Shown piece by piece: positions 22,471-52,507 of a stretch of 64,000 nucleotides of DNA (within the stretch, counting starts at the first letter, position 1; each line of letters opens with the position of its first letter). The notes below the pieces were generated by a model, which saw only the letters and a list, made by a program, of their open reading frames with translations, was not told the origin of the DNA and searched no databases. Position numbers and translations under genes: made by a program. The DNA lies in NCBI GenBank assembly GCA_964356315.1, contig CAYHHA010000001.1:51299-115298 (forward strand). The letters are read 5' to 3'. This DNA comes from an uncultured Gammaproteobacteria bacterium (GTDB taxonomy: Bacteria > Patescibacteriota > Microgenomatia > UBA10105 > UBA927).

Positions 22471-23510
22471 GGGGAGGCCCAAAGGAAATAAGAGGCTTCT
22501 TGCCTTGCTCCCCTGTTTGTAATTCCTTCCCCAGAGATGAAAAACGCGGGCAAATACAGGCCATTCTTAAGTGTGTAGAAAATTGACACAGACCTTATTG
22601 AAAAAGATTTAAAAGGAGGGTTTGGACCGCTACTCTCTAATCCCCCCGATTTAAGCGCGACAATAGACCCTCTCTGGGATTCTAAATTAAAAAGTAACTG
22701 TTCAGGCGTTAGTATCACCACGGACCCAAGTATAGCTATGGGTATCTTGGGAATAAAGATGGTAGCAGATCGAACGACACCAGAATTATCAGTGACAATA
22801 GAAGCGGAAAAATTATTAATGGAATTTGTGCTAAATGGATAATTGTTATACACAAAAGAAGCAGAGAAACCCGAGAACCTTTTGGGTTTAGGGGAGTCTA
22901 ATACAAGCAGGCCATCAAATTCTCCACCAGTCTCTTCAATATAGATACTGCTGTTCTCAAAAAGAGAAGAAAACAAATCAATAAAGCGCCTAGCTCCTAA
23001 CTCTGGGGACGATATCAACCCACCAGAAGATCGAATCCTCTGATATGTAATAGTTTGACTCTCTTTACTGGATGTTAAAATTAAAGAGAATGTGCTTGGG
23101 GAGCTCCATTTTGTTGTACGAATTGATCCTCTAATTATACTTGAGGGGGTCGCGGAGACACCAAGAGACTGAAGTATTTCTGGAATTGCAGAAACCAGAC
23201 TGTCGCCGTTAACAGATTCCCATGAGTAAGCAGGAAGCGTTTTTGGGAGAGTGGGAGTAGATATAAACGAAAACCTTGTTCCTGGGCTTTGTATAAAATA
23301 ACCAGTTGGAGCAAGAGGGACCAGTGGTTTACTCTCGACAACGGGAATGGCCGGCGTGGCTTCCTTTTTTTGATACGATAAAAAAACCGCAACAGAGATG
23401 GTGATAAACACAAATAATAGTAAAAAAATATGTCGTGTTTGCATATGTTTAACCACCCGTCGAAATAGGTTTTCCTGGGCAGTCGCCACAGCTGACATTG
23501 CACCCACCAA
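22467..23510 (-). CDS. Hypothetical secreted/membrane-anchored protein, first gene of the T4SS-like gene block
   Basis: N-terminal TM HIFLLLFVFITISVAVFLSY; Ser/Thr-rich extracellular region; no catalytic motifs. Confidence 0.35.
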   Translation of the reverse strand: MVGAMSAVATAQENLFRRVVKHMQTRHIFLLLFVFITISVAVFLSYQKKEATPAIPVVESKPLVPLAPTGYFIQSPGTRFSFISTPTLPKTLPAYSWESVNGDSLVSAIPEILQSLGVSATPSSIIRGSIRTTKWSSPSTFSLILTSSKESQTITYQRIRSSGGLISSPELGARRFIDLFSSLFENSSIYIEETGGEFDGLLVLDSPKPKRFSGFSASFVYNNYPFSTNSINNFSASIVTDNSGVVRSATIFIPKIPIAILGSVVILTPEQLLFNLESQRGSIVALKSGGLESSGPNPPFKSFSIRSVSIFYTLKNGLYLPAFFISGEGITNRGARQEASYFLWASP

Positions 23511-25740
23511 GACCTGGTGTTACGGGTAAAAGATTTAATACATTACCTCCAGATAATACCCCGAAATGTAGATGATCTCCAGAGGATGCTCCTGTTTGAT
23601 CCATGATGCCAACCTGAGAAGTTGGTGTGACTTGTATTCCTGGTTTGGCCGGGTCGACGTCTTGGATGTCTATAGCAGAAGAAAGGTGTCCAAAAATTAC
23701 CGTGTATGGGATTCCATCTTTATCGACCCCCGTTACCACCACGTGGTTTCCATATCCCTCGTAACCACTTTTACCACACAAGTTTTTCGGGTTTCCGGTA
23801 TTATCAACACAATCAGAGTGCACACTTGTTACAGTCCCAGTTAGCATAGCATATACAGGAACGCCCCCGCCCCCGGTTGCGATATCAATAGCGTTCTCGT
23901 CTGTTCCCCCACTATGCGAGCCACACGACGCTCTTGGTCCTTGGGTTATATAGCCAGATGTCGGCCAACGGCAATCACCAACACATGGAGTGTATGTGCA
24001 AACAGGATTCGATAATTTTACCGAAGGATCGTTACAATCAATAACACCTCCGCCTGTTTCAGATGACTCGCTACTCCCGCCTGTGCCCACTGAAAAAAAC
24101 TGTGCGGTTCTGGTCTCGTTCAATCTAAACGTTGAGAAAAATATCCAAATGAAAGTGGTTGATACAACCGCTAAAGCCCATATCCTAGCCTGTTTATCAG
24201 CTGGGCTTTCTGTATACGTGGCCCCGAGCATGTTTTGGACAATGCCTGTCACCGCCCCGCTCGCCGCCCGTATAGACACAATGCCCCCGTTTAAAAAACC
24301 AGAAAACGCAGACGCCCCAAACTTTTTAATTGTTCCAGAAAACGCAGATGCTGCCAGTATTGTCCACCCTACCACTGGCGCAAACCCCATTAGCTTTGAG
24401 CCCGCATTTATACCTAGTTTGAGTAGAGCTTCAGTTCCGACCCTTTTTGCCCCCGCACCCAAAACTCCCCGCTCTACCCCTCCCTTTCCTATGTTAAGCG
24501 CCCACGTGGATATGCCCGGATCAAAAGTAAAGTGGAATTCCTCGGGGCGTCTCCCAAACGCCACAGACTTAAACATTCCCTGTGCGCTTGGGGCTTGATT
24601 ACCTGTGATTGCTCCAATAAGATAATTTTGCCCCTCATGCATGATTCTTTCTCGATAATCTGAGGTTTCATCAATACTACTAGCCCAAGCTTTAACCTTT
24701 CCGCCATCTCTTTTTGTCGCTTCATTTTCTGCTTCTTTAAGAATATGGAGCACTTCGCTTTCTGATGCTACCCCTCCTGATTTTTCAACTATCTTTTGCG
24801 CGAGTTTGTCTTTATCCTTGGTAGCTGCAATGATTCTCGCTGAATATGCGTGGGAAATCACACCTTCTTTATTTGATCCTTGGTTGTATTCTGGATACGC
24901 TTGTTTTGCAGGAATGTTTTTAGTATCAGCAGGGGGTTTTCCTGCTATATATTGAATTCTTGACGCGGTAAGAGGATCACCAAAGTTTGATGGTCCAGAA
25001 AATGAGGCATCGATAAATGTGGTAACAAGCTCTGGGGGAGAGTCTGGATGCTCCAAGTACGCTTTTGTAGCTGCTCGTGTCTTTTGTTCTATGTCCCAAG
25101 CATTTTTCTGGAATTCTTTATCTTCAATAATTTTATACGCAAGCTCTCGAGCTTCTTCATTAAGGGCAGTTGATGCTTCTAGTCGCTGTCTGTATGCGTC
25201 ATAAACACCATCTAAGGTCTTGGATTTGGGTGATTTATTCAGTTCTTCAATAATAATCTCGTCCTGTGAACCTAGGGCTGATTGTCGCTGTTTCTTTATA
25301 AGCTCCTTACGATAGCCTTCCATATAAACGGATATATTATCCGTTTGTTTTTTAACCGCCTCTTGTCGTTTCTTTAAAAGAGATGATCGAAACTCTTCAG
25401 GCTGCATCGAAAACGAATTCGCTTCTGGTTTTCTGTCACTCAAAATCTTTATTGCGCTGGTTTGTTCATCCTCCGTGTGGGGGCTTGTTGGAGATTCTTT
25501 GCTTAAAAATGCGTACGGATTTTCAGCGATTTGAAGGGCAACCTCAATAGCTTTCTCTAAGTTGTCAGGGTCAAGTAGCGTGTCTGCAAGATCTATATTC
25601 TGGATAAAAAAAGCCTTTCCTTCTGTATAATGAAATAGGTTTGTTGCAAACCCAGAGGGGGAAATCTCCCCTTTGTTTAACCCCTCAACTGCGCCTGATA
25701 AGTATTGGCTGAGTGGTAATTCGTTATCAATAGTGCTCAT
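23449..25740 (-). CDS. Multidomain membrane protein with C-terminal M23 (LytM-type) peptidoglycan endopeptidase domain
   Basis: C-terminal GYGNHVVV...HLSS...DHLHFGV (HxH) and upstream H-x-D metal-ligand motif. Central Gly/Ala-rich TM segments; about 450-aa charged N-terminal domain. Confidence 0.7.
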   Translation of the reverse strand: MSTIDNELPLSQYLSGAVEGLNKGEISPSGFATNLFHYTEGKAFFIQNIDLADTLLDPDNLEKAIEVALQIAENPYAFLSKESPTSPHTEDEQTSAIKILSDRKPEANSFSMQPEEFRSSLLKKRQEAVKKQTDNISVYMEGYRKELIKKQRQSALGSQDEIIIEELNKSPKSKTLDGVYDAYRQRLEASTALNEEARELAYKIIEDKEFQKNAWDIEQKTRAATKAYLEHPDSPPELVTTFIDASFSGPSNFGDPLTASRIQYIAGKPPADTKNIPAKQAYPEYNQGSNKEGVISHAYSARIIAATKDKDKLAQKIVEKSGGVASESEVLHILKEAENEATKRDGGKVKAWASSIDETSDYRERIMHEGQNYLIGAITGNQAPSAQGMFKSVAFGRRPEEFHFTFDPGISTWALNIGKGGVERGVLGAGAKRVGTEALLKLGINAGSKLMGFAPVVGWTILAASAFSGTIKKFGASAFSGFLNGGIVSIRAASGAVTGIVQNMLGATYTESPADKQARIWALAVVSTTFIWIFFSTFRLNETRTAQFFSVGTGGSSESSETGGGVIDCNDPSVKLSNPVCTYTPCVGDCRWPTSGYITQGPRASCGSHSGGTDENAIDIATGGGGVPVYAMLTGTVTSVHSDCVDNTGNPKNLCGKSGYEGYGNHVVVTGVDKDGIPYTVIFGHLSSAIDIQDVDPAKPGIQVTPTSQVGIMDQTGASSGDHLHFGVLSGGNVLNLLPVTPGLGGCNVSCGDCPGKPISTGG

Positions 25741-28411: not shown

Positions 28412-29872
28412 CTATGTTCTGTTTCCAAACAACTCTTTTGTCAGCTGGTCTCTCGTGATTTGCTTTTGACTTTTTGTGATAATTTCTAGAGCTGGGACAA
28501 TTGATCCGTTTAGGGTCACCTGAACTCTGTCAAATGTGTAGCGTTGCCTCGGGTCTTCTATCTCAACAAAATACACACCGTTTGAAAGTGGGGTGGAAGC
28601 GGCAAATTGTCCAAGCCGATTTGTTTTGAGCGCTCGTACAGGTATACCTTCTTTGTCTTTCACTGTTACGAGAACGCCTGGTAGAAAATTATTATCGCTA
28701 TCTTTGGTGATTCCGGTGACGACGTTTGGAAATGTGGTAAGCCTTGGGAGCCCTGCTGTTACCGCTCCCTCCGGTGTGATAATTTTTACCGTTGGTTGTT
28801 TTTGTGACTGAAGCGGGATGGTTGGTTTTGGGACTTCAGGTTTCGCAATCGGTGGGAGTGGTGGGATTGGCGCCTGTGTGGTTATCTGCTGTATTGGCGC
28901 AGCCGCCTGTCTTGTGGATGTGGCTTGAATCTGCTGTTGTAATTTCGCCATCTCTCGTCCCATTTGGTCTTTTTGCTCTAACACTTCTGTGAGTTGTTTT
29001 TGTAGTTCCAGTATCCGAGATTCGGCAATAGATTTATTTTCTAGTTCGTGGGTGAGAGTAGAGAGTTTTTCTTCGAGTATTTCTTCCCTTTTTACTACCT
29101 CCTGAATCTTTTGTCTTTCTGGGTCGGGAGGTTTGACGACGGGTGGCATAGAGAGATCCAGCCTGGTTCCGACAATCGATGGGGTCTTGACGACCGGCGC
29201 CTGACTGGGTGTTGCGGGAGCAATGCGTGGTGCGATGGTTGGTTGCGGGCCTTTTATCGCAAAGAGCGAAAAAAACCAATCAAATAAACCAAGTTTCTTG
29301 GCCGGTGCGGGCTGCGAGAAACCGCGTTGGATTGGTTGTGTTTGGGGTAGAGTGGTTTGTTGGCGCGGGGCGTACATATTTGTTATGACGCTTGTCGTTG
29401 TTTTTTGCGGGGCGGATTGTGGCGCCACGCTTGTTCTGCTTTGTTGTGTTGGTTGGGCTTGTTGAGTCACCAAAGTTGGTATTTTTTGTGCGACCGGGAT
29501 AGTCTGATGTGTTGGGGCGAGGTATTGGCTTGCTCTCGCCTCGGTGAATACTGGGTTTTGAAGAGGCGGAGCTGCCTTTTTTTCTACTGATTTTTCCCAC
29601 ACATAGAGCGTGGGATTGTAAATGTTTTTTATAAAGGATAATGCCCACACGTCCATTGGTCTGTCCTCTATTGGAACAAAAGCAAATCCGACTCCACCCA
29701 AGGCAAATATGGTGGTAAGTGGCCACGTGAAGAAAAACGGCAACGGAAGCTTATACGATATATATGCGAGGATTAATCCACCCGCGAGGTATCCAAACTG
29801 CTTTATGGTCATGTCGCCTATAAGGCGGAACTGAAATGTTGTAACATTTTGCGGGACAGGATGTTGCTCCAT
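28412..29872 (-). CDS. T4SS-associated membrane protein: VirB3-like two-TM N-terminus, Pro/Gln-rich linker, coiled coil, C-terminal beta domain
   Basis: Two N-terminal TM helices (FGYLAGGLILAYISY, PLTTIFALGGVGFAFV). Long P/Q/T-rich low-complexity region, heptad-like ELQKQLTEVLEQKDQMGREMAKLQQQIQ, and a C-terminal carboxypeptidase-regulatory-like beta sandwich (GVLVTVKDKEGIPV...). Confidence 0.4.
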   Translation of the reverse strand: MEQHPVPQNVTTFQFRLIGDMTIKQFGYLAGGLILAYISYKLPLPFFFTWPLTTIFALGGVGFAFVPIEDRPMDVWALSFIKNIYNPTLYVWEKSVEKKAAPPLQNPVFTEARASQYLAPTHQTIPVAQKIPTLVTQQAQPTQQSRTSVAPQSAPQKTTTSVITNMYAPRQQTTLPQTQPIQRGFSQPAPAKKLGLFDWFFSLFAIKGPQPTIAPRIAPATPSQAPVVKTPSIVGTRLDLSMPPVVKPPDPERQKIQEVVKREEILEEKLSTLTHELENKSIAESRILELQKQLTEVLEQKDQMGREMAKLQQQIQATSTRQAAAPIQQITTQAPIPPLPPIAKPEVPKPTIPLQSQKQPTVKIITPEGAVTAGLPRLTTFPNVVTGITKDSDNNFLPGVLVTVKDKEGIPVRALKTNRLGQFAASTPLSNGVYFVEIEDPRQRYTFDRVQVTLNGSIVPALEIITKSQKQITRDQLTKELFGNRT

Positions 29873-30040: not shown

Positions 30041-32227
30041 ATGGAGTCATCATTTGTGCTATTGGAAGTAAAAAACTCCCGGGAAAGTGAAGAAACGCCA
30101 GCTGCGATGGAGCAGGTGTATGCGGCGCTCGGCGCGACAGCGGGGCATGGTGGTTTTCTTGCTTCGTTATTCGGCCCGCGTCACGCTCCAAAATTTTTCA
30201 GCCTTGAACTAGTCTCTGTAAACTCACGACTGCATTTTTTCATCGGCATGCCATCTCTTTCTCAGTCATATGTAGAGAGTCAGATCACCGCGCAGTACCC
30301 GAAAGTGCTTTTATCTCTTTCTCCAGACTATGTTCCACATTTTTTTACACTGCCTCACACCAGTGCGCATCTGACGCTCTCAAACTCGTTTTATTATCCG
30401 CTTAAAACGTATAAAGATGTAAAAGAATTGGATGTATTGGCAAGCGTGTTAGGACAAATGGCAAAATTACCAAATGATGAAGCTGCCACAGTACAGATTT
30501 GGATATCTCCAGCAGGCCACAGCTGGCAACACACAGCGGCTTCTGTTGTTGCTCGAGGGATTCCCGACCTAAGCTCTCCGACCCCTGGTCGTATGAAGCC
30601 ACACCCGCATGCGCGACTTATTGAAACAAAAATTGCTCAGGTGGGGTTTAGCGCAGCAGTACGAATTGCGACGGTCGCTGCAAACGAACACCGAGCAAAC
30701 GAACTACTTCAATCTTTAGGTGGAACGTTTGGTGTATATACATTGGGTGGAGGAAATTCTCTACAACTCACAGAACCAGCATTTTGGAATAAAAAGCGTC
30801 TAGAAAAAGCAATGATTACCAGGAGTGGTGATTTGCTTCCCCGGAACCAAATATTAAACGCATCTGAGCTTGCATCTTTGTGGCACCCGCCTGGGCTCAC
30901 GCTCTCAATGATCAAAAACATCTCATGGGGATCGCAACTCACTGGGGAGGCTCCAGAAAATTTACCCATCGCAACAGACAGCGAAGAAGAGAAAAAAGAA
31001 ATAAATTTTTTCGCCAAGGCGGAACATAAAAATAAGCTGACGACTTTCGGTATTAAAAAGGATGATCGGCGACGACATATGTATATTATTGGGAAGACGG
31101 GGACTGGAAAATCTACCATGATTGCGAATATGGCAATCAATGACATGAAAAATGGAGAAGGCGTTGCTGTCGTTGATCCACATGGAGATCTTTGTGATAT
31201 CCTTTTGGACTATGTACCGTCTCACCGAATAAATGATGTTGTCTATTTGGACCCCGCTGATATTGAGTACCCGTTTCATTTAAATCCACTGGAGGTTCGA
31301 AATCCGGCATACAAAGAGCTCGTCTCCTCTGGCATCGTGTCTATCTTCTATAAACTCTATCATTTGAGTTGGGGGCCGAGACTCGAATATATTTTACGAA
31401 ACACAATTTTAACTCTGACGAACGTTCCTGGTAGCACGCTTTTGCAGGTTCCAGAACTTCTCACGAACGAAACGTATAGAGCAAAAGTTATTGAAAAAAT
31501 GACAGATCAAGTATTAAAAAATTTCTGGCTCAATGAGTTTGCAAAAATGAGCCCACAAATGCGTTCAGAAGCGGTCTCTCCAATTTTAAATAAAGTTGGG
31601 CAGTTCTTGTCATCGCAAACAATCCGAAATATTGTGGGCAGTAGCGTCTCAACTATTGATCTGGAAGACCTGATGAATCAAGGGAAAATTGTTCTCGTTA
31701 ATTTGTCACAAGGGAAACTCGGTGAAGATACGAGCGCACTTTTGGGAGCCATGATCATCACAAAAATGCAACTCGCCGCCATGAACCGTGTGTATCTAGC
31801 AGAGGGAGATCGGAAAGATTTCTACTTGTATGTCGATGAATTCCAAAATTTTGCCACAACCTCATTTATAAAAATTTTGTCTGAAGCCCGCAAATACAGG
31901 TTGGACCTTATTCTTGCAAATCAGTACATAGGGCAAATAGATGAAGATGTGCAGAGTGCTATTTTTGGCAACGCCGGATCTATTATCTCTTTTGGCGTTG
32001 GAGCCGCAGACGCACGACTCCTCACCCGTGAGTTTGGAGAAAAATATGAAGAGAGCGAATTGGTTGCTCTTGGAAATTATGAAACAATGTTAAAGCTCTC
32101 TATCGATAACCACATGAGTTTGCCATTTAGTGCGAAAACCCTCCCGCTTCCAAAGTCCCGAAACCAAAATAGGGAAAAGGTGATCCGCGCCTCGAGGGAA
32201 AGATATACGAAGAGAGTTGTGAAATAA
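30041..32227 (+). CDS. VirD4/TraG/TraD-like (FtsK/HerA-superfamily) P-loop ATPase, putative type IV coupling protein
   Basis: Walker A YIIGKTGTGKST followed by VAVVDPHGD (T4CP-like), Walker B YLYVDEFQNFA; 728 aa; no clear N-terminal TM, so the call is family-level only. Confidence 0.55.
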   Translation: MESSFVLLEVKNSRESEETPAAMEQVYAALGATAGHGGFLASLFGPRHAPKFFSLELVSVNSRLHFFIGMPSLSQSYVESQITAQYPKVLLSLSPDYVPHFFTLPHTSAHLTLSNSFYYPLKTYKDVKELDVLASVLGQMAKLPNDEAATVQIWISPAGHSWQHTAASVVARGIPDLSSPTPGRMKPHPHARLIETKIAQVGFSAAVRIATVAANEHRANELLQSLGGTFGVYTLGGGNSLQLTEPAFWNKKRLEKAMITRSGDLLPRNQILNASELASLWHPPGLTLSMIKNISWGSQLTGEAPENLPIATDSEEEKKEINFFAKAEHKNKLTTFGIKKDDRRRHMYIIGKTGTGKSTMIANMAINDMKNGEGVAVVDPHGDLCDILLDYVPSHRINDVVYLDPADIEYPFHLNPLEVRNPAYKELVSSGIVSIFYKLYHLSWGPRLEYILRNTILTLTNVPGSTLLQVPELLTNETYRAKVIEKMTDQVLKNFWLNEFAKMSPQMRSEAVSPILNKVGQFLSSQTIRNIVGSSVSTIDLEDLMNQGKIVLVNLSQGKLGEDTSALLGAMIITKMQLAAMNRVYLAEGDRKDFYLYVDEFQNFATTSFIKILSEARKYRLDLILANQYIGQIDEDVQSAIFGNAGSIISFGVGAADARLLTREFGEKYEESELVALGNYETMLKLSIDNHMSLPFSAKTLPLPKSRNQNREKVIRASRERYTKRVVK

Positions 32228-34082: not shown

Positions 34083-37000
34083 ATGAATGAAATAGATAAG
34101 GGGCCATGGAGATTTTTCAAAGATCTAATAAATAAAATACGTAAAGAGCCTATTAAACCACCTGAAAAACCGGTGTATAAGAAAGTAGCCGAGATACGCC
34201 CGCGGAATCGTCCAGAAAGAGTCCTCAAAAAGGCTGACACAGAAAATCTTCAAAAAAAAGAGGTTTCAAAAAAGATAGATAATATTGGTAGGCCACCCTC
34301 CCCAAAAGAAGCTATTGATATATTAAGCGACGCTACAGCGTCAAGCACAGTTGAAGGAGCAAGGCTCGTGTTGGGTCTCCAGCAACTTAAATCTGTTGAT
34401 TGGTCAGCTGTTGACAAGAAAGCAGAATGGCAAAAAATCAACACTGCAATTCTCGGATTGCCTAAAACAGAGTCTCTTACAAGCGCGGATGATATTTTCC
34501 TAAGACAAGCTGCGGAAAAATATGCATCTGTATTTTATTATCAAAATGTTGCAGAAATTGCGGCGGTTCCTGGTTCCGTTGATTGGGTGGGCCCACATAA
34601 AGATTTTGCCGAAGCTCATGCAAGGGATTTGACAGAGCGTACCGCACAGATACAGCGAGCTGAATCTGAAGGTGTAAGCGCACAAAACATTTTGAAAGAC
34701 CTGGATGATGGCCATAAAGATAATCCTCAAACTGTTGAAGAGATAGGTAAGCTTGCCTGGCCCCCCAAACAATACACAGCGGATGATGGATCTAGGCGTA
34801 TTGGAGCGCTATTGGGGGCTTCGGATTATGCCGATTGGATACAAACTGCAGCAGGAAAAACTGATAATCCGCAGGTGATTTCGTTTCTTGTAAACTTGGC
34901 GGAATCTGGCCCAGATGCATTAAAGGATCCAAAATTTTTGTTCACAAAGGCAGTGCAGTTTCGAGAAAAATTAATAAAACCAATGTCGTCAGATGCTGCC
35001 TCTCGTGGCGGTCTTGATTCAATACTTCAGGACATGACAAATCAGATTCAGAAATGTGTTAAAGATGGTGCTCCTTTGTTTGAAAAAATTGGTCCAAACG
35101 AGAAAATGGGACAAATTATTGGCAAGTTTCCGGTGGTAGATTTAGAAACAAAATCAAAAATAGATACGAGCAAATGGTTTGTTAAAGATTCTGGTGGAAA
35201 AGTACACTTTTATGATGATACCACAGGTAAGATAGATGTGCCTGCAGGGTCGCCTATCGCGGATCAGTTGAACGGCTTGGCTGAAGAATTTAATCGGTTA
35301 CAGAACCAAATTAATTCAGAGCCAGAGTCTCTGGTCCAAGGTAATTTGAATCTAAGGGGCACCCGAGAAAAATTGGATAGTATTATGTATGAAATTCGAG
35401 CTAAAGGAGGGGTTGTTCCAGGCATGGCGGTTGAAAAATATCAAGAATTACTGGGCCTGGAGATTGGGTTATATGATCACGGACATGATTACACTGGCTT
35501 AGGCCTTGATGAGCAGTGGAAGGTTGCCGTGCGAGAAAAGGGATTCACGGCTGTAGTAGAAGAGCAAATGCGAATTATTGAAAAGAATACAAGATCTCAT
35601 GAGGGGGATATGTATCAAGGTCAGGCGGCCGCACAAACAATGCAGTATCTGTTTGGATGGTCACAGTATCCTGGGTATATCAATGAATGGACGATTGAAT
35701 TGTCCCGAAAAGGTCTAAATAACGAGCAAATTGCAAAACGATTAAAAGAGATTCTTGACGAGCGAGATATGGCCTCAAAAATCATAAACGCTCGCAAGCA
35801 GCTATTAAGCGCCACCACGCTCTATCATGCTGCTGGGATTCCGTCTGAAAAAATGCCTCAAGTCATGTCTCCAATAGGAGATGAGGGACCACAATTTTTA
35901 TTGACCATCAATGATGGAAGAATTGCAAAAATTCGCGATTTTCTCGATGAATATTATAACAGTGGACAATTCGTGGAAGGTACAGATGATACGCGTCGAT
36001 ATTATGCCCAGACATTTGAAAAACTTAGTAAGGATATGGAGCAGGATCTTGAATATGCAAGTGACTTATTTGGGCTTACACCTGGTCAGATTGAAGAAGC
36101 AGCTTTTCTTGCTGATGAGCTTGCGACTATCACCGACCGAAAAGTAGTGATGATTGGAAAAGGAAAAGCACCTCAAGAGGACAATGTTCACCATATGTAT
36201 TTAGGTGGTGACAGAGCAGAGGAATATGCCTCTGATAGAGAATTCGGCAGGTTTAAGTTTTTCCGTTGGGCATTTTTAGACAACGTGGCTATCCATATGT
36301 ATGAATCTTCAAGTTACTTTGTAGCAAAAATGAGGGGTGCAGAAAAGGTGATAAGCGCGCGCATCGCTGAGGCAAGTAGCCGTCCGGGAGGTAAAGAAGA
36401 GCTGGTAAAAGAATTGTGTTTTATCACAGAGCGTCATATGAGTCTGCCAGAGCCAGACCGAATCAAGACTATAGAAGATCATTTGAAAACACAATTTCGT
36501 AGTAAAGACATGAGAGCAAATAAGAGAACAAAGAATGTTCTTTGGGCAAAGAAAATACCAAAAACGCTTGAAGAAGCGGCGAAGGATGAAAAATGGTTAA
36601 AAGAGCGTATGATGATTCAAGTGGGTTCCAAACAATATGATCGAAGTTTGATGTCTTATACATACTACGACTCCGGGCCCATGGTGTCTGAGGTCTTGGG
36701 GCAGATTCGGGAAATGTTTGAGCCTAATATTGCAGACACGCTTGGGATTAATATGAGCGTCAGAGATGCGTATGCTAATCTCCTTGGAGCAAAAGATCAT
36801 AGTGCAAAGCATCACGCTGAACATGCTCTTAAGCATGAGTTGCAACGGGCTGCAAAATATAATCCTTTAGAGCTCTTCCGAGCTCATGTAGCCCACCACG
36901 ATTTTTATACAAAAGACTGGTTTTCGGGTCTTGATAAAAATATAATGAATGCATTTTTATCAGATAAAGAGATGGCTAAAGGCATACAGAGCTCAGGTGA

Positions 37001-38033
37001 TCTGGTGAAAGCGCTAGGCAAACGACTGATAGCGATAGATACACTCGTTAAAGACGAGGTAAAACAGAATAAATTTATAGCCAGAATTGACTGGAGTAAA
37101 GATTTATCCGCAGAGCATTCGTCCATTGTAAGAAGAGTTCTTCAATCTTTCTCTGGCGCTTCAGGTGGAGGGGATTTGGAAATTGGGTATGAAGAATTTA
37201 CGGGTCTCATGCAAGATATTTCAACACAAGTGGTGGGACAGGACTATTCAATTCACCGCATGATGGATATCGATTACTGGGACTATGGGTATCAGACAGA
37301 ATCTGTGCATGATAGCTGGTTGGATCTACTTGAACAGCCAGATAAGTATGGAAATAAGACGGGTCACACTGATCTTATAAAATTATCACACAGGCTGGGT
37401 GCAAAAAATGGATACGGATCAGGGTCTTTGCTGGTTCGAAATCATGGAGATAAAGAACCGGCAAGAAAGTGTGGTGATTTGATGCTTCAGTTTTATACAA
37501 AAGGCATGGATCAAAAATCACTCATGGAAGCGATTAAAGAAATTGCATTTCAAGATCGTATGGTTTATGGGTCTCCTTGGGACAAACGATCTGTAATCTA
37601 CTTGCTTTCGGGACTATTAGATCAAGCAGCTGTAGACTCAGGATCTGAATGGACATTTGGGACTCTTGATTTTTTTGCACCTAAAAATTCGCCACTTCGA
37701 AGATTGCTAAATGAAAAAGCTGAGGGGTGGACTATACATGACCGATATGAATTCGTGGAAATTATGGAAAATCAAATCCGATCTAATCTTCATGAGATTG
37801 ACCACGAAATGGCAGATGGATTTTTGCAATATGTGAAAATAAATATGAGTCTCCCTGGTTTTAATAAAATAGCAAACGGTAATGTGTGGAAGAAACGCAT
37901 GTATACTGTCGGCGCTATCGCAGCTGTTTCAGGTGCAATTGCGCTAGGAGGTGTGTTTTTAAGCGAGGCAAAAGTAACTTCTCCTGGGTCAGGCGGTGGT
38001 GGCGGGGATGAACATGTGCCACAACATCATTAG
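34083..38033 (+). CDS. Giant (1316 aa) acidic hypothetical protein with C-terminal TM anchor and poly-Gly tail; T4SS-locus cargo or structural component
   Basis: No recognisable domain. Single C-terminal TM (VGAIAAVSGAIALGGVFL) followed by SPGSGGGGGDEH; convergent with the VirB6-like gene. Confidence 0.5.
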   Translation: MNEIDKGPWRFFKDLINKIRKEPIKPPEKPVYKKVAEIRPRNRPERVLKKADTENLQKKEVSKKIDNIGRPPSPKEAIDILSDATASSTVEGARLVLGLQQLKSVDWSAVDKKAEWQKINTAILGLPKTESLTSADDIFLRQAAEKYASVFYYQNVAEIAAVPGSVDWVGPHKDFAEAHARDLTERTAQIQRAESEGVSAQNILKDLDDGHKDNPQTVEEIGKLAWPPKQYTADDGSRRIGALLGASDYADWIQTAAGKTDNPQVISFLVNLAESGPDALKDPKFLFTKAVQFREKLIKPMSSDAASRGGLDSILQDMTNQIQKCVKDGAPLFEKIGPNEKMGQIIGKFPVVDLETKSKIDTSKWFVKDSGGKVHFYDDTTGKIDVPAGSPIADQLNGLAEEFNRLQNQINSEPESLVQGNLNLRGTREKLDSIMYEIRAKGGVVPGMAVEKYQELLGLEIGLYDHGHDYTGLGLDEQWKVAVREKGFTAVVEEQMRIIEKNTRSHEGDMYQGQAAAQTMQYLFGWSQYPGYINEWTIELSRKGLNNEQIAKRLKEILDERDMASKIINARKQLLSATTLYHAAGIPSEKMPQVMSPIGDEGPQFLLTINDGRIAKIRDFLDEYYNSGQFVEGTDDTRRYYAQTFEKLSKDMEQDLEYASDLFGLTPGQIEEAAFLADELATITDRKVVMIGKGKAPQEDNVHHMYLGGDRAEEYASDREFGRFKFFRWAFLDNVAIHMYESSSYFVAKMRGAEKVISARIAEASSRPGGKEELVKELCFITERHMSLPEPDRIKTIEDHLKTQFRSKDMRANKRTKNVLWAKKIPKTLEEAAKDEKWLKERMMIQVGSKQYDRSLMSYTYYDSGPMVSEVLGQIREMFEPNIADTLGINMSVRDAYANLLGAKDHSAKHHAEHALKHELQRAAKYNPLELFRAHVAHHDFYTKDWFSGLDKNIMNAFLSDKEMAKGIQSSGDLVKALGKRLIAIDTLVKDEVKQNKFIARIDWSKDLSAEHSSIVRRVLQSFSGASGGGDLEIGYEEFTGLMQDISTQVVGQDYSIHRMMDIDYWDYGYQTESVHDSWLDLLEQPDKYGNKTGHTDLIKLSHRLGAKNGYGSGSLLVRNHGDKEPARKCGDLMLQFYTKGMDQKSLMEAIKEIAFQDRMVYGSPWDKRSVIYLLSGLLDQAAVDSGSEWTFGTLDFFAPKNSPLRRLLNEKAEGWTIHDRYEFVEIMENQIRSNLHEIDHEMADGFLQYVKINMSLPGFNKIANGNVWKKRMYTVGAIAAVSGAIALGGVFLSEAKVTSPGSGGGGGDEHVPQHH

Positions 38034-38050: not shown

Positions 38051-39586
38051 TTATTCGTGATCAACTCCTGGCGGTGGTTTCCCAGCTCCAAGCATTTGAG
38101 GAGCCGCTTTCTCTCCCTTGATGTGCTTCATATAGTATATAAGGGAAGATATTTGAGATCCATAAGAGAGTGCACTTGCCAATGCTCCACCACCTCCACC
38201 TCCAGCTCCTGCGAACGCAGGCTTTGCCTTCAGCGCTTCTTTTACCGATCCAGCTACTGTTGGGATGGCAAAAAGAACACCAAGGGATACAAGTGATGCT
38301 ATTTGTGCCATATCTCCTGAGACTGGTGCATAGGGCGGTGTCCATAGTTTTCCTGCGGAGGCGTTGTTGGAAAAATGGGTAAACACATTTGCAAGCATAA
38401 ACATCCCGGCTCCGATGGGGAACACAGCTAGATTAGAGATCAGATTATTAAACCACGAAGAAAATGCAGTGCTCCCTGGTATGGCCTCCATCATAAGTTG
38501 AAGTGGCGCAAGAAGGAGCGAAAGGATAATTTGAATATAAGACATAAGGAAAAATGCCACAAGGCGAACAAACAGGAAAATAATCGCAACAGTAAGGATA
38601 ACATGAATTATAGGAATGCTTAGGCTTGCTATTCCAACTGGAGCTGCGATTAGTGCGGCCCCTGGCACTGTTGCTAATGCAAGAGCGAAAATAATTCCCC
38701 CAACAGAGAGGTATTTTGCCGTGGCCTGCGCTACAGCATTCGTCCCAAAAAGTATTTTATCTACATCCCAAGAGAGGTTGAAGAAATTTTGCATCAATCC
38801 GCCCTGTCCATAAAGCTGTTCAGGTGTTTTAAATCCTTGAGAGAGTGCAACCCCCTGAGGAGCGTCAAGTAGCGTTGTCGACTTGAATAGCGCAATCAAA
38901 ATATAGATAATCACATACATAAAATCGATCAAAATACCTACAATGGCATAAGAAAATGTGATGAGGATAAGCGCTAGGACAACTTTAGGGATAGCATTTT
39001 GTGCGGTGACGACCGTATGAGGGTCAATTTTTTTCCGGAACATGATCATAAAACCAAGTACAATCATGACAATTGCCATCAGTAAGTATGCGACGTTTCG
39101 AAATGCTTTCCAGACAGGCAAGAGGGGAGCCATGCCAGAAAAACCAATGCCCTGGCCTTGTGCAAACGCCTGTTGGGGTATAAATCCGAGCGTGCGACCT
39201 GTGTCTGCAATCCAGAGTCCTGTATCTGCGGGTCTTTGTGTAAATGTTAAAGCCACAACGTCATTTAATTTCCCAAATGCGCTGTTTTGTATATATGTTT
39301 GCATATCTGCTGGATTGTCTGTGCAGTCAAAGCCAACTCCTAAGCATGACAGTGAATATAATCCATAAATATTGCTTGAGTGTACAGATGATTCCGAATT
39401 CATGGGTGTACCTTGTAGAGCTTTGCCAAATTGGGAAGGAGGCGGAAATTTCCAGGACTCTGCAGCGTGTACAGTGACAGTCAAAGAAAAACAGAGTGCT
39501 ATGCCAGCTAGGTAGAGTGATATGGTGTGTAAATATCTCTTCATGCTTCCTCTATTATTGAGTAATTGTGTTATGGCGTCAATCAT
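38051..39586 (-). CDS. VirB6/TrbL-like polytopic inner-membrane protein (putative T4SS channel component)
   Basis: Signal peptide (LYLAGIALCFSLTVTVHA), about 120-aa periplasmic segment, then six or more TM helices and a Gly-rich tail; directly upstream of the pilin gene array. Confidence 0.4.
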   Translation of the reverse strand: MIDAITQLLNNRGSMKRYLHTISLYLAGIALCFSLTVTVHAAESWKFPPPSQFGKALQGTPMNSESSVHSSNIYGLYSLSCLGVGFDCTDNPADMQTYIQNSAFGKLNDVVALTFTQRPADTGLWIADTGRTLGFIPQQAFAQGQGIGFSGMAPLLPVWKAFRNVAYLLMAIVMIVLGFMIMFRKKIDPHTVVTAQNAIPKVVLALILITFSYAIVGILIDFMYVIIYILIALFKSTTLLDAPQGVALSQGFKTPEQLYGQGGLMQNFFNLSWDVDKILFGTNAVAQATAKYLSVGGIIFALALATVPGAALIAAPVGIASLSIPIIHVILTVAIIFLFVRLVAFFLMSYIQIILSLLLAPLQLMMEAIPGSTAFSSWFNNLISNLAVFPIGAGMFMLANVFTHFSNNASAGKLWTPPYAPVSGDMAQIASLVSLGVLFAIPTVAGSVKEALKAKPAFAGAGGGGGGALASALSYGSQISSLIYYMKHIKGEKAAPQMLGAGKPPPGVDHE

Positions 39587-39969
39587 GGTGATTGCAAGAT
39601 ATTAAATTTTGTTATGGTGTCTGTTGTCCCCGTGAATGATCCAATCACCCGGAGGATCAGATATGCGCTCACAATGACGACGAGTCCGATAATGGCATTG
39701 GTTAACGTTCCCTTGGCTTGTTCGAGCTTTTTTTGATCTCCTTGGGAAAAAAGAAACGAAAACCCACTAACGATGAACATGAGAAATAATGCTACAGCCC
39801 CAAGGGAAATGGCTGTTTTCACAAAATTTCGAAACAAATTTTCGAGCGACCCGATGGTTGCGACATCTGTTCCTTCGTATGTAGTTAGGGTTTCAGCTAT
39901 GGCATAGGGAGCAAGTCGTAGAGACATAATCCCGAGGGCTATATAGCTTGCAATTCTCTTTGCAGTCAT
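39583..39969 (-). CDS. TrbC/VirB2-like T4SS pilin paralog 1
   Basis: Signal/TM, then FSQGDQKKLEQAKGTLTNAIIGLVVIVSAYLIL: the shared pilin motif (x-GD-x-K-x3-A-x3-I-x2-A-x-IGL + second TM). Confidence 0.6.
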   Translation of the reverse strand: MTAKRIASYIALGIMSLRLAPYAIAETLTTYEGTDVATIGSLENLFRNFVKTAISLGAVALFLMFIVSGFSFLFSQGDQKKLEQAKGTLTNAIIGLVVIVSAYLILRVIGSFTGTTDTITKFNILQSP

Positions 39970-40092
39970 AGGTATATTGTAGCACGTACACTCTGGGATT
40001 ATGAATAATGAGCTGAAACTATTTAGGAATACTTACGTACACATCATGATATTTCCATGATTCATTCTTCATGATTCCCGATTCAGATTGTT

Positions 40093-40422
40093 TTAATAAG
40101 GCTTTGGGAAGTTTACTGCTCCACCGATGATGGTGACACCCAGGAAGTTCTGGATAAGGAGCATGACCGCCCATGCTGCGCCGACGATGATAAGTCCGAC
40201 GATGGCATGCGTGATTTTATTTCGGGCCGCTTCCATGCCTGCTTTGTCTCCACCTGAGGTGATCCATTGGATTCCTCCGAGTATGAGAAAGAAAAACGCA
40301 AGAAGTGCTGCGATAATAAGGAGTGTGCCAACGAGTGCACTAATAAGCTGGCCTATGTCGTTTATTTTCATGTTTGTCGGTTGGCCAATTGTGATTTGTG
40401 GATCTGCTGCAAATACTTTCAT
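40093..40422 (-). CDS. TrbC/VirB2-like T4SS pilin paralog 2
   Basis: ITSGGDKAGMEAARNKITHAIVGLIIVGAAW. Confidence 0.6.
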   Translation of the reverse strand: MKVFAADPQITIGQPTNMKINDIGQLISALVGTLLIIAALLAFFFLILGGIQWITSGGDKAGMEAARNKITHAIVGLIIVGAAWAVMLLIQNFLGVTIIGGAVNFPKPY

Positions 40423-40501
40423 ACGTTCCTCCTATTTTATATATCTATATTATATCCTATTTCTTATTGTTGCGCAAAAAGATAGAGACTGTCAATGCCA
40501 T

Positions 40502-40849
40502 TTATCGTCCAACCGTTGGAATTTGGAGGCTTTTGAGATCGAGACCGAAGAAGCCAGCGACCAACGTTGTCAGTGCAAACGAAGCGCCTACAATGATGAT
40601 ACCGATAATTGCATTAGTGATATTGTCTCGTGCCGCCTCTAGCTTCGTCTTATCTCCTCCAGCGCTAATCCATGATATGCCACCTGTAATCAGGTAAACG
40701 AATGCCAATAAAAATCCTGCAATAAATAGTGCTCCAACAAGACTGCTGATAAGTGACCCCAATGCTTTTCCGCCCTCTTGATAATTCCCGCCACCAATAG
40801 CGCGGGGGAGGATAGGGTTGGTAAGTGCTGCAAGAAATTTTTGGTGCAT
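40502..40849 (-). CDS. TrbC/VirB2-like T4SS pilin paralog 3
   Basis: ISAGGDKTKLEAARDNITNAIIGIIIVGASF. Confidence 0.6.
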   Translation of the reverse strand: MHQKFLAALTNPILPRAIGGGNYQEGGKALGSLISSLVGALFIAGFLLAFVYLITGGISWISAGGDKTKLEAARDNITNAIIGIIIVGASFALTTLVAGFFGLDLKSLQIPTVGR

Positions 40850-40850
40850 A

Positions 40851-41240
40851 TTATTTTAATTTGAATAATTCGTTTGTCGCCGGTCCTAACAATATATCGT
40901 ATCCGAAAAATTGTCCCGCCACAGCCAAAAGGCTCCATGATCCGATGACAATGACAAGGCCGACAAACGCATGAGTGATGCGGTCTCTGGCTGATGCAAT
41001 TTTTTTGGCATCTCCTCCAGCGCTGATCCACTCGTATCCTGCGAACAACAGCATGAATAAAAACCAAATGCTGGCAAATACGGTCAGCATGCCAACGATA
41101 TCGCTCACGTAATTTGTAATCGTTTCGACAGGATTGCTTATCGCTTTTCCCGCGAATGGTCCCAGTTCTCCGCCGTTTCCCTCTCCGATTGTTCCCAGAG
41201 ATTGTCCTAACGCTACTGATTTAGCAAGAAGTGTTGTCAT
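40851..41240 (-). CDS. TrbC/VirB2-like T4SS pilin paralog 4
   Basis: ISAGGDAKKIASARDRITHAFVGLVIVIGSW. Confidence 0.6.
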   Translation of the reverse strand: MTTLLAKSVALGQSLGTIGEGNGGELGPFAGKAISNPVETITNYVSDIVGMLTVFASIWFLFMLLFAGYEWISAGGDAKKIASARDRITHAFVGLVIVIGSWSLLAVAGQFFGYDILLGPATNELFKLK

Positions 41241-41241
41241 A

Positions 41242-41607
41242 TTAGTTTGGACCGTATATTGACGGGCTTAGGATGGCGCTTGGGCTACCAAAGAATACTT
41301 GACCCATCAGAGCGGCGATTGCAAAAGACCCCACAATCAACACAAGTCCGAGAAGTGATTGGTAGATCCTGTCCCATGCCGCGGATACTGACTTAGAATC
41401 ACCACCAGCGTTCATATACTGGAATCCTGCAATGATAAAGTTGAAAAACGCAAAAATCCCCGCAACCACAAACACCAGTCTTAAAATATTACTGAGAAAT
41501 AGGATAAGCCCGCCCCCTGCGCCTGCTGCTCCAATAATATTTTTATATTGTGCCGGTAGCGGGTTTGTGACCGTTCCGATAATATCGTCTGCGTAAACTT
41601 TAAACAT
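41242..41607 (-). CDS. TrbC/VirB2-like T4SS pilin paralog 5 (start set at internal Met to avoid overlap)
   Basis: MNAGGDSKSVSAAWDRIYQSLLGLVLIVGSF; the ORF-track N-terminal 30 aa overlap the next gene. Confidence 0.5.
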   Translation of the reverse strand: MFKVYADDIIGTVTNPLPAQYKNIIGAAGAGGGLILFLSNILRLVFVVAGIFAFFNFIIAGFQYMNAGGDSKSVSAAWDRIYQSLLGLVLIVGSFAIAALMGQVFFGSPSAILSPSIYGPN

Positions 41608-41618
41608 ATAATTAGCAT

Positions 41619-41954
41619 CTACCTCGGTAAAATACAAAGTGTATTTACACAATCTCCCTTTAAACCTGTTAGGGTCTCTATAATCTGAATGATCCAAAAC
41701 GATCCGAGTACAACGATAAGACCTATGACTGCGCCGGTAATTGCCTTTTTCCCCGACTCCATTTTTTTCGTATCTCCGGATCCTGCAGCTTGTATCATAC
41801 CAAATCCAGCGAAAACTAACAAAAGAAACGCGATAACACCTGCGAGCATAAAAGCATTTGGCACGATCACCGACACCAAATCACCTAGGTTGGTAAACTT
41901 TGTTATAGAGGGAAATTCAGTTCCAATATTCACAGCTGCAAATACGCGTTCCAT
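41619..41954 (-). CDS. TrbC/VirB2-like T4SS pilin paralog 6
   Basis: IQAAGSGDTKKMESGKKAITGAVIGLIVVLGSF. Confidence 0.55.
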   Translation of the reverse strand: MERVFAAVNIGTEFPSITKFTNLGDLVSVIVPNAFMLAGVIAFLLLVFAGFGMIQAAGSGDTKKMESGKKAITGAVIGLIVVLGSFWIIQIIETLTGLKGDCVNTLCILPR

Positions 41955-42044
41955 ATATGGTTAGTGTAGGCTAGCAGGGCTTGGCGTGTCAATTCGAAAA
42001 TTTGTCGGTAGTGGCGCAAATATGGTATAGTTTCCCCATATTCT

Positions 42045-42611: not shown

Positions 42612-42884
42612 ATGAAAACAATATCAACACCAATTTCCCATCGCACTCAACGCGAAGACCATCAGATGTACCGACGGTTTGTTAAAAGATGGGAAGAGGT
42701 GACAGATTTGCCCGTCCAAACGATGGGCCCATTTACTTCTCTATACAAAATATTAGTAAAACGGCTGAAGGTGATGCCCCTTATCGCGCTGGTAGCCAGC
42801 TCGCTCCTTCTTGTCATTGGTCTGTATGTGCTCTTTGGATCTGCAATCACCGTGCTTACCAGTATTCTTCAAAAAGGATTCTAG
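42612..42884 (+). CDS. Putative membrane-anchored anti-sigma factor
   Basis: Small protein with charged N-terminus and one C-terminal TM, immediately downstream of the ECF sigma gene. Positional inference only. Confidence 0.3.
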   Translation: MKTISTPISHRTQREDHQMYRRFVKRWEEVTDLPVQTMGPFTSLYKILVKRLKVMPLIALVASSLLLVIGLYVLFGSAITVLTSILQKGF

Positions 42885-45874: not shown

Positions 45875-45877
45875 ATG

Positions 45878-45963: not shown

Positions 45964-45966
45964 AAT

Positions 45967-47136: not shown

Positions 47137-47196
47137 TCCAATAATCCAATGATAAATATATTAGAATATTAGTTTATTGGAATATTGGAGTATTAT
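47132..47196. repeat. AATAATCC direct repeats and inverted ATTGGAAT/ATTGGAGT partner flanking the RBS of the downstream gene
   Basis: aataatccaataatccaat at 47132-47150 versus attggaatattgga at 47176-47189; GGAG RBS at 47187-47190. Confidence 0.5.
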
Positions 47197-51694: not shown

Positions 51695-52039
51695 TTATCC
51701 AAAAATTGCTTTGATTGCGTCAAATCCAAAGACGAACCCAAAGATTTGCACCATCCAATACGCAGAGAAGATAATGAAGAATCCCAAAATAGCATAGGTA
51801 ATTTGTTGTTTCCCTTTTTCAAGACTTTTCGCATCTCCAGCGCTGGTTAAAAATGTGAATCCTCCCAAAAGAAGCATTAAAAGAAGTCCAATGCCACCAA
51901 ACAGAAATACCAATTTCATAGCGCTAGATACAAGACCGCCGACACCCATGCCTGCAGCGCCACCTTCGAGAGGGCCATTTACAGAAGCGGAAGTGCCTAC
52001 CCACGGAAGTGTGAGGTTTTGCGCAAGTTGTTTTATCAT
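51695..52039 (-). CDS. TrbC/VirB2-like T4SS pilin paralog 7 (distal copy)
   Basis: LTSAGDAKSLEKGKQQITYAILGFFIIFSAYW: the same motif as the six-gene array at 39.6-42 kb. Confidence 0.6.
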   Translation of the reverse strand: MIKQLAQNLTLPWVGTSASVNGPLEGGAAGMGVGGLVSSAMKLVFLFGGIGLLLMLLLGGFTFLTSAGDAKSLEKGKQQITYAILGFFIIFSAYWMVQIFGFVFGFDAIKAIFG

Positions 52040-52042
52040 AAT

Positions 52043-52507
52043 TTATTTAAATCCTGGTATTCCAATAATATTAACTCCAATAAACTGTAGGATAAATATA
52101 GAGAAAATAATCAGAAGAAGTCCTGTGATTGCAGATGTGACAAGTTCTCGACCAGCATTTAGTTGCTCTGGATTTCCGGCACTGGTCATAATCTGAAGCC
52201 CGCCAAATAAAATTAACAAGAACGCAATGCCACCCGCTATTCCCATAGCGAACCTGATTACTTTTTCCAACAAACTATTCGGATTAGATTGAATATCATC
52301 AATACAGCCAATCGCTGTCCAAACTCCTGGAGAAGTGTCATCTCCCATACAACTCTCGCAACCTGATTTTTGCTTAGGGTCTGTGATCGTGCTACAGGCC
52401 CTCGTGTTTATCTCAAAGGCCGTTTTCTCTGCTTTTACGACAAAAACATGTCCTACTAAAGCTGTGAATACTATGAAAAAAGCCGTAACAACGCCAAATA
52501 TACGCAT
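52043..52507 (-). CDS. TrbC/VirB2-like pilin paralog 8 with Cys-rich N-terminal extension
   Basis: Signal peptide, a segment with five Cys, then IMTSAGNPEQLNAGRELVTSAITGLLLIIFSIF. Confidence 0.5.
   Translation of the reverse strand: MRIFGVVTAFFIVFTALVGHVFVVKAEKTAFEINTRACSTITDPKQKSGCESCMGDDTSPGVWTAIGCIDDIQSNPNSLLEKVIRFAMGIAGGIAFLLILFGGLQIMTSAGNPEQLNAGRELVTSAITGLLLIIFSIFILQFIGVNIIGIPGFK

Follow-up and report, generated by a model that had tools for sequence, protein, structure and literature searches.

Why would one bacterial locus keep eight different genes for the same kind of small pilin-like protein? We addressed this question in a 64-kb window, the whole stretch of 64,000 nucleotides analyzed here (contig CAYHHA010000001.1 of assembly GCA_964356315.1, forward-strand positions 51,299 to 115,298). 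All coordinates below are those of the window. A first-pass annotation had reported eight paralogous VirB2/TrbC-like pilin genes in it, six in tandem (39583-41954) and two distal (51695-52507). It had offered two uses for such an array, namely, antigenic variation or the building of a major/minor pilin assembly. The comparative evidence supports a fixed set of non-redundant subunits, encoded by the six tandem genes and drawn from six ancient orthogroups, and not a set of interchangeable variants. The genes are under purifying selection, show positional orthology, and contain no recombination substrates. They probably encode a heteromeric major/minor (pseudo)pilin set, that is, the fixed, non-redundant VirB2-like subunits of a type IV secretion system (T4SS).

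These eight genes were recovered both with Pfam and with a profile of our own. All of them matched PF18895 (T4SS_pilin), with E values from 2e-12 to 4e-5. The gathering score of this family is 26.6 bits. Seven copies scored above it (31.5 to 47.4 bits), and pil5 scored below it (24.1 bits). pil5 groups cleanly with the position-2 orthologs inside the PF18895 family, with 58 to 87% identity. A hidden Markov model (HMM) built from the eight copies was run against all six-frame open reading frames (ORFs) of the window. It returned the same eight only, with E values of 1e-34 to 1e-39. It found no further copy in the 64 kb, and the next-best six-frame ORF had an E value of 0.38.

The copies share a core, and the alignment contains it much as it was first described (GGD/AGD, K, A(R), I(T)). 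It consists of hydrophobic helix 1, a G-G/A-D-x-K...A-R/K..I-T.A..G-L loop, and hydrophobic helix 2. G50, G58, G76, and G95 are invariant, and D59, T71, and A73 are nearly so. The element that had been labeled signal/TM is present as a hydrophobic segment. It is the first helix of the hairpin; the signal peptide is a separate element that occurs only in pil1 and pil8.

All eight genes are on the minus strand. The first gene of the array is pil6 (41619..41954), which belongs to orthogroup A and encodes 111 amino acids (aa; PF18895 E 1.9e-7). It is followed by pil5 (41242..41607; orthogroup B; 121 aa), in which the C-terminal motif ILSPxIYGPN is conserved. The next genes are pil4 (40851..41240; orthogroup C; 129 aa), pil3 (40502..40849; orthogroup D; 115 aa), and pil2 (40093..40422; orthogroup E; 109 aa). 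pil2 is the candidate major subunit. None of these five encodes a signal peptide. The final array gene is pil1 (39583..39969; orthogroup F; 128 aa; PF18895 E 2.1e-12). The pil5 gene most likely starts with the ATG at 41607, as do its orthologs and the gene call on the European Nucleotide Archive (ENA) contig; an overlapping TTG at 41697 is an unlikely start.

The two distal paralogs sit beside uppS and SpoIID, not beside T4SS genes. pil7 (51695..52039) encodes 114 aa without a signal peptide (PF18895 E 9.8e-8). It adjoins uppS and branches beside orthogroup A. Its ortholog L015.1 is 51% identical and is likewise beside uppS. In L013, L015, and L016, uppS lies about 1.5 to 6 kb upstream of the main array. 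pil8 (52043..52507) encodes 154 aa (PF18895 E 3.8e-8). It has a signal peptide and the Cys-rich extension that had been remarked on earlier, which is N-terminal and contains four Cys residues.

Are these genes alternatives to one another or parts of one set? Related loci (given L-numbers) were fetched with the VirB6-like protein encoded next to the array, and 80 metagenome loci (L024 to L103) were fetched with pil2-type sequences. The sequences of a 48-member family alignment diverged too far for it to seed the metagenome scan. An orthogroup-E alignment was used instead, and the metagenome sample is therefore limited to the clade of the window. In L006, L007, L008, L009, and L015, every window gene has a single clear ortholog, which occupies the same array position and is 57 to 97% identical. 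The second-best matches in these loci, which are to paralogs, are 33 to 58% identical. Within the window, the paralogs are 26 to 55% identical to each other (mean, 34%; local alignments).

A neighbor-joining tree of 57 sequences contained six position-specific clades, from A (pil6) to F (pil1). Orthologs of pil6 hold position 1 in L006, L007, L008, and L015 and in 35 complete metagenome arrays. The order A-B-C-D-E-F is kept where the VirB6-like protein is only 29 to 31% identical, and the extra copies found there are within-group duplicates (L013 and L016). Every one of the 80 metagenome loci is a substring of a single arrangement, namely, a divergent extracytoplasmic function (ECF) sigma factor gene, A B C D E F, and the VirB6-like gene. 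Two seeming exceptions to this order were frame artifacts. No pilin genes were detectable in the retrieved flanks (up to 10 kb) of the more distant L012 and L017 to L023. These loci were found via the VirB6-like protein and are labeled Saccharibacteria, Dojkabacteria, and others.

The subunits are conserved in sequence as well as in position. In L006 and L008, the nonsynonymous divergence (dN) was 0.02 to 0.07 for pil2 and 0.085 to 0.25 for the other pilin genes, versus 0.33 to 0.37 for the VirB6-like gene. Synonymous sites were saturated against the closest relatives (pS 0.61 to 0.85). Omega was 0.01 to 0.06 wherever the synonymous divergence (dS) could be computed, and these values are rough because dS is saturated. 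The dN/dS comparison that had been suggested for the paralogs points to purifying selection through its low dN, with most dS values saturated and a few rough omega values beside it. Across the 35 complete arrays, the mean pairwise identity was 0.74 for orthogroup E and 0.60 for B, with A, C, D, and F near 0.5; the rank of E is inflated because the sample was seeded with pil2-type sequences. The same arrays gave 0.63 for HMG-CoA reductase, 0.41 for the VirB6-like protein, and 0.30 for within-array paralogs. In their conservation across genomes, the pilins are close to HMG-CoA reductase. The paralog-specific tails are conserved between close orthologs (0.56 to 0.86).

These results bear directly on antigenic or host-range variation, in which the copies would be alternative surface subunits, expressed singly or recombined to evade recognition or to fit hosts. 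Antigenic variation or host adaptation has also been raised as a speculation on multiplicity (PMC12102498). The paralogs differ most in their N- and C-terminal tails, which would be exposed, and the VirB2 paralogs of Bartonella and Anaplasma, cited in PMC12102498, provide a precedent. Three promoter-like sites, none above chance, could separate the expression of pil6 to pil3, pil2, and pil1. Against this stand the strict one-to-one positional orthology, the unchanged order in 80 loci, a dN below that of adjacent genes, and the conserved tails themselves. The copies share no DNA repeats longer than 24 nt. The array contains no tandem repeats, long homopolymer tracts, or relevant inverted repeats of the kind that signal phase variation. 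It contains no truncated or silent copies; all are full length with start codons. Variation in population data had been named as a check, and five independently assembled contigs showed 0 single-nucleotide polymorphisms (SNPs) in the array. Because orthology is one to one, order is fixed, dN is low, and repeats and SNPs are absent, variation by switching or recombination is not supported. For the clade of the window, antigenic variation is largely refuted, and we consider it very unlikely.

The gene of this locus that does vary lies on the other side of the VirB6-like gene. This gene (34083..38033, plus strand) is convergent with the VirB6-like gene, and its 1316-aa product ends in a membrane anchor at the C terminus and has no significant Pfam match. 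The protein is about 20% identical to the product of the syntenic gene in L006, L007, and L008, whereas the coupling protein is 82 to 91% identical and the flanking T4SS genes are 76 to 91% identical in those loci. In this locus, the 1316-aa gene is the hypervariable one. Its product is a better candidate than the pilins for host specificity or an effector role. The window differs from ENA contig L001 at seven sites, and five of these are within codons ~32 to 48 of the 1316-aa gene (~34178-34225).

If the six genes encode parts of one set, is there a major part? Of all proteins encoded in the locus, pil2 is the most conserved. It is 97, 94, 89, and 88% identical to its orthologs, against 57, 59, 50, and 48% for the VirB6-like neighbor. 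It has 1311 database relatives, and the best 120 of the 1311 are all at least 77% identical. The intergenic region upstream of pil2 (40423..40501, minus strand) contains a promoter-like TTGACA-18-AACAAT and an AGGAGG located 5 nt before the ATG. Among the genes examined, only pil2 has an AGGAGG ribosome-binding site. Farther up the array, TAATATG junctions couple the pil4 start to the pil5 stop and the pil3 start to the pil4 stop. Promoter and terminator scans of the region were not above chance; the pil2 promoter is a consensus match, and the positions are suggestive. pil2 is likely the major subunit. Its pattern resembles that of the pseudopili of type II secretion, in which minor subunits join a major one.

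Two further -10-like hexamers occur, each a consensus match only. TACAAT before pil1 (39970-40005, minus strand) ends 7 nt from the ATG, and TACACT before pil6 (41955-41992, minus strand) ends 9 nt from the ATG. The mRNAs of pil1 and pil6 may be leaderless, since these -10 positions would put the transcription starts at or beside the start codons.

The AlphaFold2 (AF2) model of pil2 is a helical hairpin of two ~35-residue helices (H20-55 and H60-94). The hydrophobic stretches run the full length of the helices and exceed what a bilayer requires. In the model, this length fits filament-forming conjugative pilins better than it fits an ordinary transmembrane hairpin. The best PDB match of the model in Foldseek was the conjugative pilus of Aeropyrum pernix (8dfu), which was non-significant (E = 2).

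The N-termini raise a second question. Hydropathy indicates a separate N-terminal signal peptide in two of the eight copies, pil1 (...YAIA↓ET), where it forms a third hydrophobic segment, and pil8. The other six have none. Their frames are closed 1 to 9 codons upstream, or any longer upstream stretch is free of hydrophobic segments. The pil6 protein begins with MERVFAAV and has two hydrophobic segments only. Among related metagenome ORFs, 325 of 337 have exactly two hydrophobic segments, even from the first in-frame Met, and this leaderless count includes 63 of the 70 group-F genes. Miscalled starts do not account for this, as too little sequence lies between the stops and dozens of genomes show the same N-termini. 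An alternative genetic code was also rejected, as long table-11 ORFs run throughout the window.

Distant orthologs (L013.6, L013.7, L016.3 to L016.9, and L011.2) bear Sec signal peptides that end in VLA↓Q, AFA↓V, and AHA↓Q. The leaderless forms start a few residues before the cleavage site, with N-termini such as MKVFAAD, MERVFAAV, MNLLAQL, and MLKIFAAD. A remnant of the cleavage site for signal peptidase, M-x(1-4)-[VIL][FYL]-A-[AQ], is retained in them; in the six window copies it takes the form M-x-x-VFA-A/Q. In all six orthogroups, repeated loss has thus removed the hydrophobic core of the signal peptide and spared the region of the cleavage site. The first-pass annotation had counted the lack of a cleavable signal peptide against a pilin identity, and six of the eight copies do lack one. 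Because distant orthologs have normal signal peptides, the loss is secondary; it does not make the proteins something else, and the pilin reading is not overturned by it. We infer leaderless insertion of the hairpin, with an N-terminal tail of ~21 to 45 residues translocated and the topology of the signal-peptide-bearing orthologs kept. Cys-rich extensions are present in pil8, L015.5, and L016.7 and fit an extracytoplasmic N-terminus.

What would these subunits assemble on? The stop codon of pil1 overlaps the start of the VirB6-like gene (ATGA; 38051..39586, minus strand), which encodes a 511-aa polytopic membrane protein. This gene directly follows the array wherever the contig extends past the last pilin gene. 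The protein has no Pfam or NCBIfam match, and no Pfam domain occurs in any of the 120 homologs listed for it. An AF2 model was built on 30 homologs and had a pLDDT of 73. The top five meaningful PDB matches of this model in Foldseek are all TrwI/VirB6 chains of R388, from the stalk of its T4SS. They have E values of 7.7e-3 to 0.15, probabilities of 0.87 to 1.00, and TMt of 0.35 to 0.47 (0.41 to 0.47 for the best); none reaches an E value of 1e-3. We read the modeled protein as a divergent VirB6. VirB6 homologues have been reported to be scarce in Microgenomatia (PMC12102498). The 511-aa protein, as modeled, may be the "missing" VirB6 of this group.

The assembly that we favor would proceed as follows. 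Each protein would insert as a two-helix membrane hairpin. Both ends would be outside and the conserved GGD-K..AR loop inside, by homology with the signal-peptide-bearing orthologs. The VirB4 ATPase would presumably recruit the hairpins to the VirB6-like platform with which they are co-translated. They would assemble there into one heteromeric structure, whether pilus, short pseudopilus, or conduit. The abundant major subunit would be pil2 (orthogroup E), and the other five may serve as accessory, priming, or tip subunits via their paralog-specific outer tails. The topology, the formation of a filament, and the major and minor roles are predictions. Of the two uses first offered for the array, the major/minor assembly is the one that fits the data.

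Several points weigh against this assembly, in addition to the saturated dS and the pil2-seeded sample described above. To our knowledge, no pilus built by a T4SS of Patescibacteria has been seen, and we infer the filament. The fold search with pil2 cannot discriminate between candidates because a two-helix fold is too simple; the best E value was 2. The loop charge bias is weak, with a net charge of 0 to +2, and is -1 in the signal-peptide-bearing pil8. An N-out topology is not proven, because six copies are leaderless and this bias is weak. The canonical pilin family PF04956 (TrbC/VirB2) was matched by 4 of 48 relatives at E < 0.01. Among the window copies, it was matched by pil1 only, with 17.7 bits (E 0.004) against a gathering score of 27.9. 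The family profile found two chance matches and no pilin among all PDB sequences. The original label VirB2/TrbC-like is acceptable for the PF18895 family and the T4SS locus; the copies are below the PF04956 cutoff, and canonical homology is weakly detectable.

A serious rival is that the proteins are membrane-embedded channel subunits. The hairpins would then stay in the cytoplasmic membrane around VirB6 and VirB4, as stoichiometric components of the inner-membrane complex of the T4SS, with no extracellular pilus, and would be comparable to the CDS15-type protein of Mycoplasma integrative and conjugative elements (ICEs) or to VirB3. NF045849, the Mbov_0395/MMCAP2_0565 family pilin-like conjugal transfer protein of Mycoplasma ICEs, was matched by seven of the eight copies (17 to 25.7 bits). 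It was also matched by 39 of 48 relatives at E < 0.01 (best, 2.2e-9), across nearly all 80 model positions. None reached the equivalog cutoff of 40 bits, so they are related to this family and not members of it. Mbov_0395 is near the VirB4 gene of the ICE (Mbov_0397), two genes away by locus-tag number. In ICEA of Mycoplasma agalactiae, CDS15, CDS16 (VirB6-like), and CDS17 (VirB4) are required for transfer, and CDS13 and CDS15 are called VirB3-like. Monoderm T4SSs are generally pilus-less (PMC12102498). The missing signal peptides suit resident membrane proteins, and in the fold search, ATP synthase subunit c and pilins are matched about equally well.

The equation of Mbov_0395 with CDS15 is a presumption from locus-tag order alone. 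A VirB3-like identity was rejected, as none of the 48 members matched PrgI or VirB3; TrbC/VirB2 was the second most frequent Pfam family among them. The locus already contains a separate PrgI/VirB3-like gene. The ~35-residue hydrophobic helices exceed the need of a simple transmembrane hairpin. Six distinct, conserved subunits with one that is over-conserved and strongly translated resemble a major/minor (pseudo)pilin set. Channel subunits are an unlikely explanation but one to be taken seriously.

The other rival takes these as small membrane proteins, for example holin-like or stress proteins, that have nothing to do with the T4SS and merely lie nearby. There were isolated sub-threshold matches to a holin family, RseC, and DUF6112, and the two distal copies are beside uppS and SpoIID, away from the T4SS genes. 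These matches are singletons below their cutoffs, whereas PF18895 was matched by 46 of the 48. The array overlaps the VirB6-like gene translationally, and its synteny with the coupling protein, PrgI, and VirB4 genes is conserved. The family is also essential within the T4SS cluster of Southlakia epibionticum (PMC10633639). We regard a chance neighborhood as extremely improbable.

The (pseudo)pilin set may be part of a longer history. The six paralogs could be obligate co-subunits of one heteromeric, mostly leaderless VirB2-like (pseudo)pilus or conduit on a highly divergent VirB6, the subunit being ancestral to monoderm (MPF-FATA) T4SSs and not a diderm import. The loss of the leader would then be a switch to signal-peptide-independent insertion. 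The import of Patescibacteria pilins from diderm systems has been raised as a question (PMC12102498). An ancestral monoderm subunit is proposed here on the ground that the pilin-like Mycoplasma ICE protein is matched by most members, and these matches suggest a small pilin-like hairpin protein in at least one monoderm T4SS branch. We put this history forward tentatively and, taken as a whole, think it rather doubtful. If it is true, the shedding of Sec signal peptides, step by step and in parallel across the six orthogroups, marks a signal-peptide-independent insertion route.

The locus around the array encodes the other parts of a T4SS. Its genes lie 4 to 16 kb from the array and begin right after dnaA-dnaN; dnaA (19784-21151) is followed by dnaN and then directly by T4SS genes. 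A 763-aa protein (23449..25740, minus strand) contains a C-terminal M23 peptidase domain (PF01551 E 2.6e-8) and is a candidate cell-wall hydrolase of the T4SS. The VirB4-like ATPase (25745-27679, minus strand) contains P-loop_TraG, AAA_10, and CagE_TrbE_VirB domains. Together with a TrsD-like ORF of 250 aa (27676-28428, minus strand), it gave NF045975 and NF041427 matches. The TrsD-like ORF overlaps the VirB4-like gene from upstream and matches the N-terminal part of NF045975 (Mycoplasma-ICE VirB4; positions 101 to 233) as well as TrsD/TraD. These matches point to either a split VirB4 or a TrsD-like partner. The PrgI (VirB3-like) domain protein (28412..29872, minus strand) matched PF12666 with an E value of 5.6e-7. 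The VirD4/TraG-like coupling ATPase (30041..32227, plus strand) contains TrwB_AAD_bind, TraG-D_C, and DUF87 domains. With the VirB4-like, TrsD-like, PrgI/VirB3-like, coupling, M23 hydrolase, and VirB6-like genes in one locus, the association of the pilins with a T4SS was borne out.

The large ORFs of the 64-kb window yielded no relaxase. Homologs of the window proteins carry the names Gottesmanbacteria, Microgenomates, or Patescibacteria. The locus is a chromosomal, origin-proximal, monoderm-type T4SS of a Gottesmanbacteria-like Microgenomatia bacterium. Many third-party annotation records of metagenome-assembled genomes with this locus (L006 to L018) are titled "uncultured Gammaproteobacteria" or "Pseudomonadales bacterium." These labels are probably wrong, as the locus is unmistakably that of Patescibacteria.

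On the other side of the array is the gene for an ECF-type sigma factor with Sigma70_r2/r4_2 domains (42045-42596, plus strand). It is divergent from the array, and this arrangement is kept in L006 to L008, L015, and ~40 metagenome loci. It is followed by a 90-aa membrane ORF (42612-42884, plus strand), a possible anti-sigma factor. The two may be a regulator pair for the array. The region upstream of the array contained no identifiable ECF-type promoter.

A ParE-toxin/antitoxin pair (~33317-33816, plus strand) lies between a cytidylyltransferase gene and the 1316-aa gene. In L006, L007, and L008, the gap between the cytidylyltransferase gene and the giant gene is too small for such a pair. 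A 23S-rRNA-intervening-sequence protein gene is present at 32227-32640, and there is no room for a counterpart in L006 and L007. Both appear to be small strain-specific insertions in the T4SS locus. Positions 43683-50957 (plus strand) contain a mevalonate operon with genes for HMG-CoA reductase, an HMG-CoA synthase-like protein, thiolase, and diphosphomevalonate decarboxylase. It also encodes two GHMP kinases, one of which is NUDIX-fused, and the pathway is apparently complete.

What does a fixed set mean for this system? Patescibacteria live as epibionts, and the T4SS is among the few machines whose essentiality for this way of life has been shown. With a fixed six-subunit set, reconstitution of heteromers, structures of pil2-type filaments, and per-paralog knock-downs are more useful than searches for variation. 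For host specificity, attention shifts to the adjacent giant hypervariable protein. For the clade of the window, purifying selection on the array argues against the published antigenic and host-range speculation (PMC12102498). The practical value is limited, as the type of array is already published.

The closest known systems are the other pilin arrays of Patescibacteria. A survey with PF18895 and PF04956 found 441 arrays of 2 to 11 VirB2-like genes in 383 Patescibacteria assemblies (Quinonero-Coronel et al. 2025, PMC12102498). Microgenomatia and Saccharimonadia were particularly rich in them, and within-array identity averaged 25%, with a maximum of 54%. The same survey placed T4SS genes near dnaA and found relaxases generally lacking in Patescibacteria. 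In S. epibionticum, a Saccharibacterium, the predicted pilin series in the T4SS cluster is essential (Wang et al. 2023, PMC10633639) and comprises six VirB2-like pilins that are conserved in structure and divergent in sequence (PMC12857230). The kind of array described here, with tandem, divergent VirB2-like pilin genes in a chromosomal, dnaA-proximal locus of Patescibacteria, is thus already published (PMC12102498, PMC10633639, PMC12857230). The present array is alike in its tandem PF18895 genes of low identity (30 to 34%; maximum, 55%) and in its chromosomal MPF-FATA-like T4SS by dnaA/dnaN with no relaxase nearby. There is no difference in kind. Unlike the S. epibionticum T4SS, the window contains a recognizable coupling protein.

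Canonical TrbC, VirB2, and TraA pilins are likewise small proteins with two long hydrophobic helices and a short polar loop, and they are genetically linked to VirB4, VirB6, and the coupling protein. They have long leaders and are often cyclized or acetylated, whereas the window copies mostly have no signal peptide. Their systems have one pilin gene, against six to eight paralogs here. They belong to diderm T4SSs, whereas the present system has a monoderm host and no VirB5, VirB7, VirB9, or VirB10. The Mbov_0395 protein of Mycoplasma ICEs is also a small hairpin protein of a monoderm T4SS. It differs in being a single pilin-like copy in a mobile conjugative element, whereas six to eight copies are found here in a chromosomal, relaxase-free locus.

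Several pilin-type genes in tandem also occur in the VirB2 families of Bartonella and Anaplasma and in pilE/pilS of Neisseria. Those show lineage-specific amplification, variation, or recombination, whereas the present genes are ancient, ordered, repeat-free, and under purifying selection. If the model is right, the array is alike in plan to the major and minor (pseudo)pilins known from type II secretion and from type IV pili (GspG with GspH-K). Both would have a conserved, highly expressed major subunit with non-redundant minor ones, encoded in a fixed order within one operon. There is no homology between them. GspG and GspH-K have an N-terminal helix and a globular domain instead of a helical hairpin and use another ATPase, and the window pilins have no prepilin-peptidase motif. 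To the arrays already known from Patescibacteria, this locus adds refinements: a fixed order of six orthogroups, purifying selection, the leaderless state, a VirB6-like partner, a link to Mycoplasma ICEs, and a hypervariable giant neighbor.

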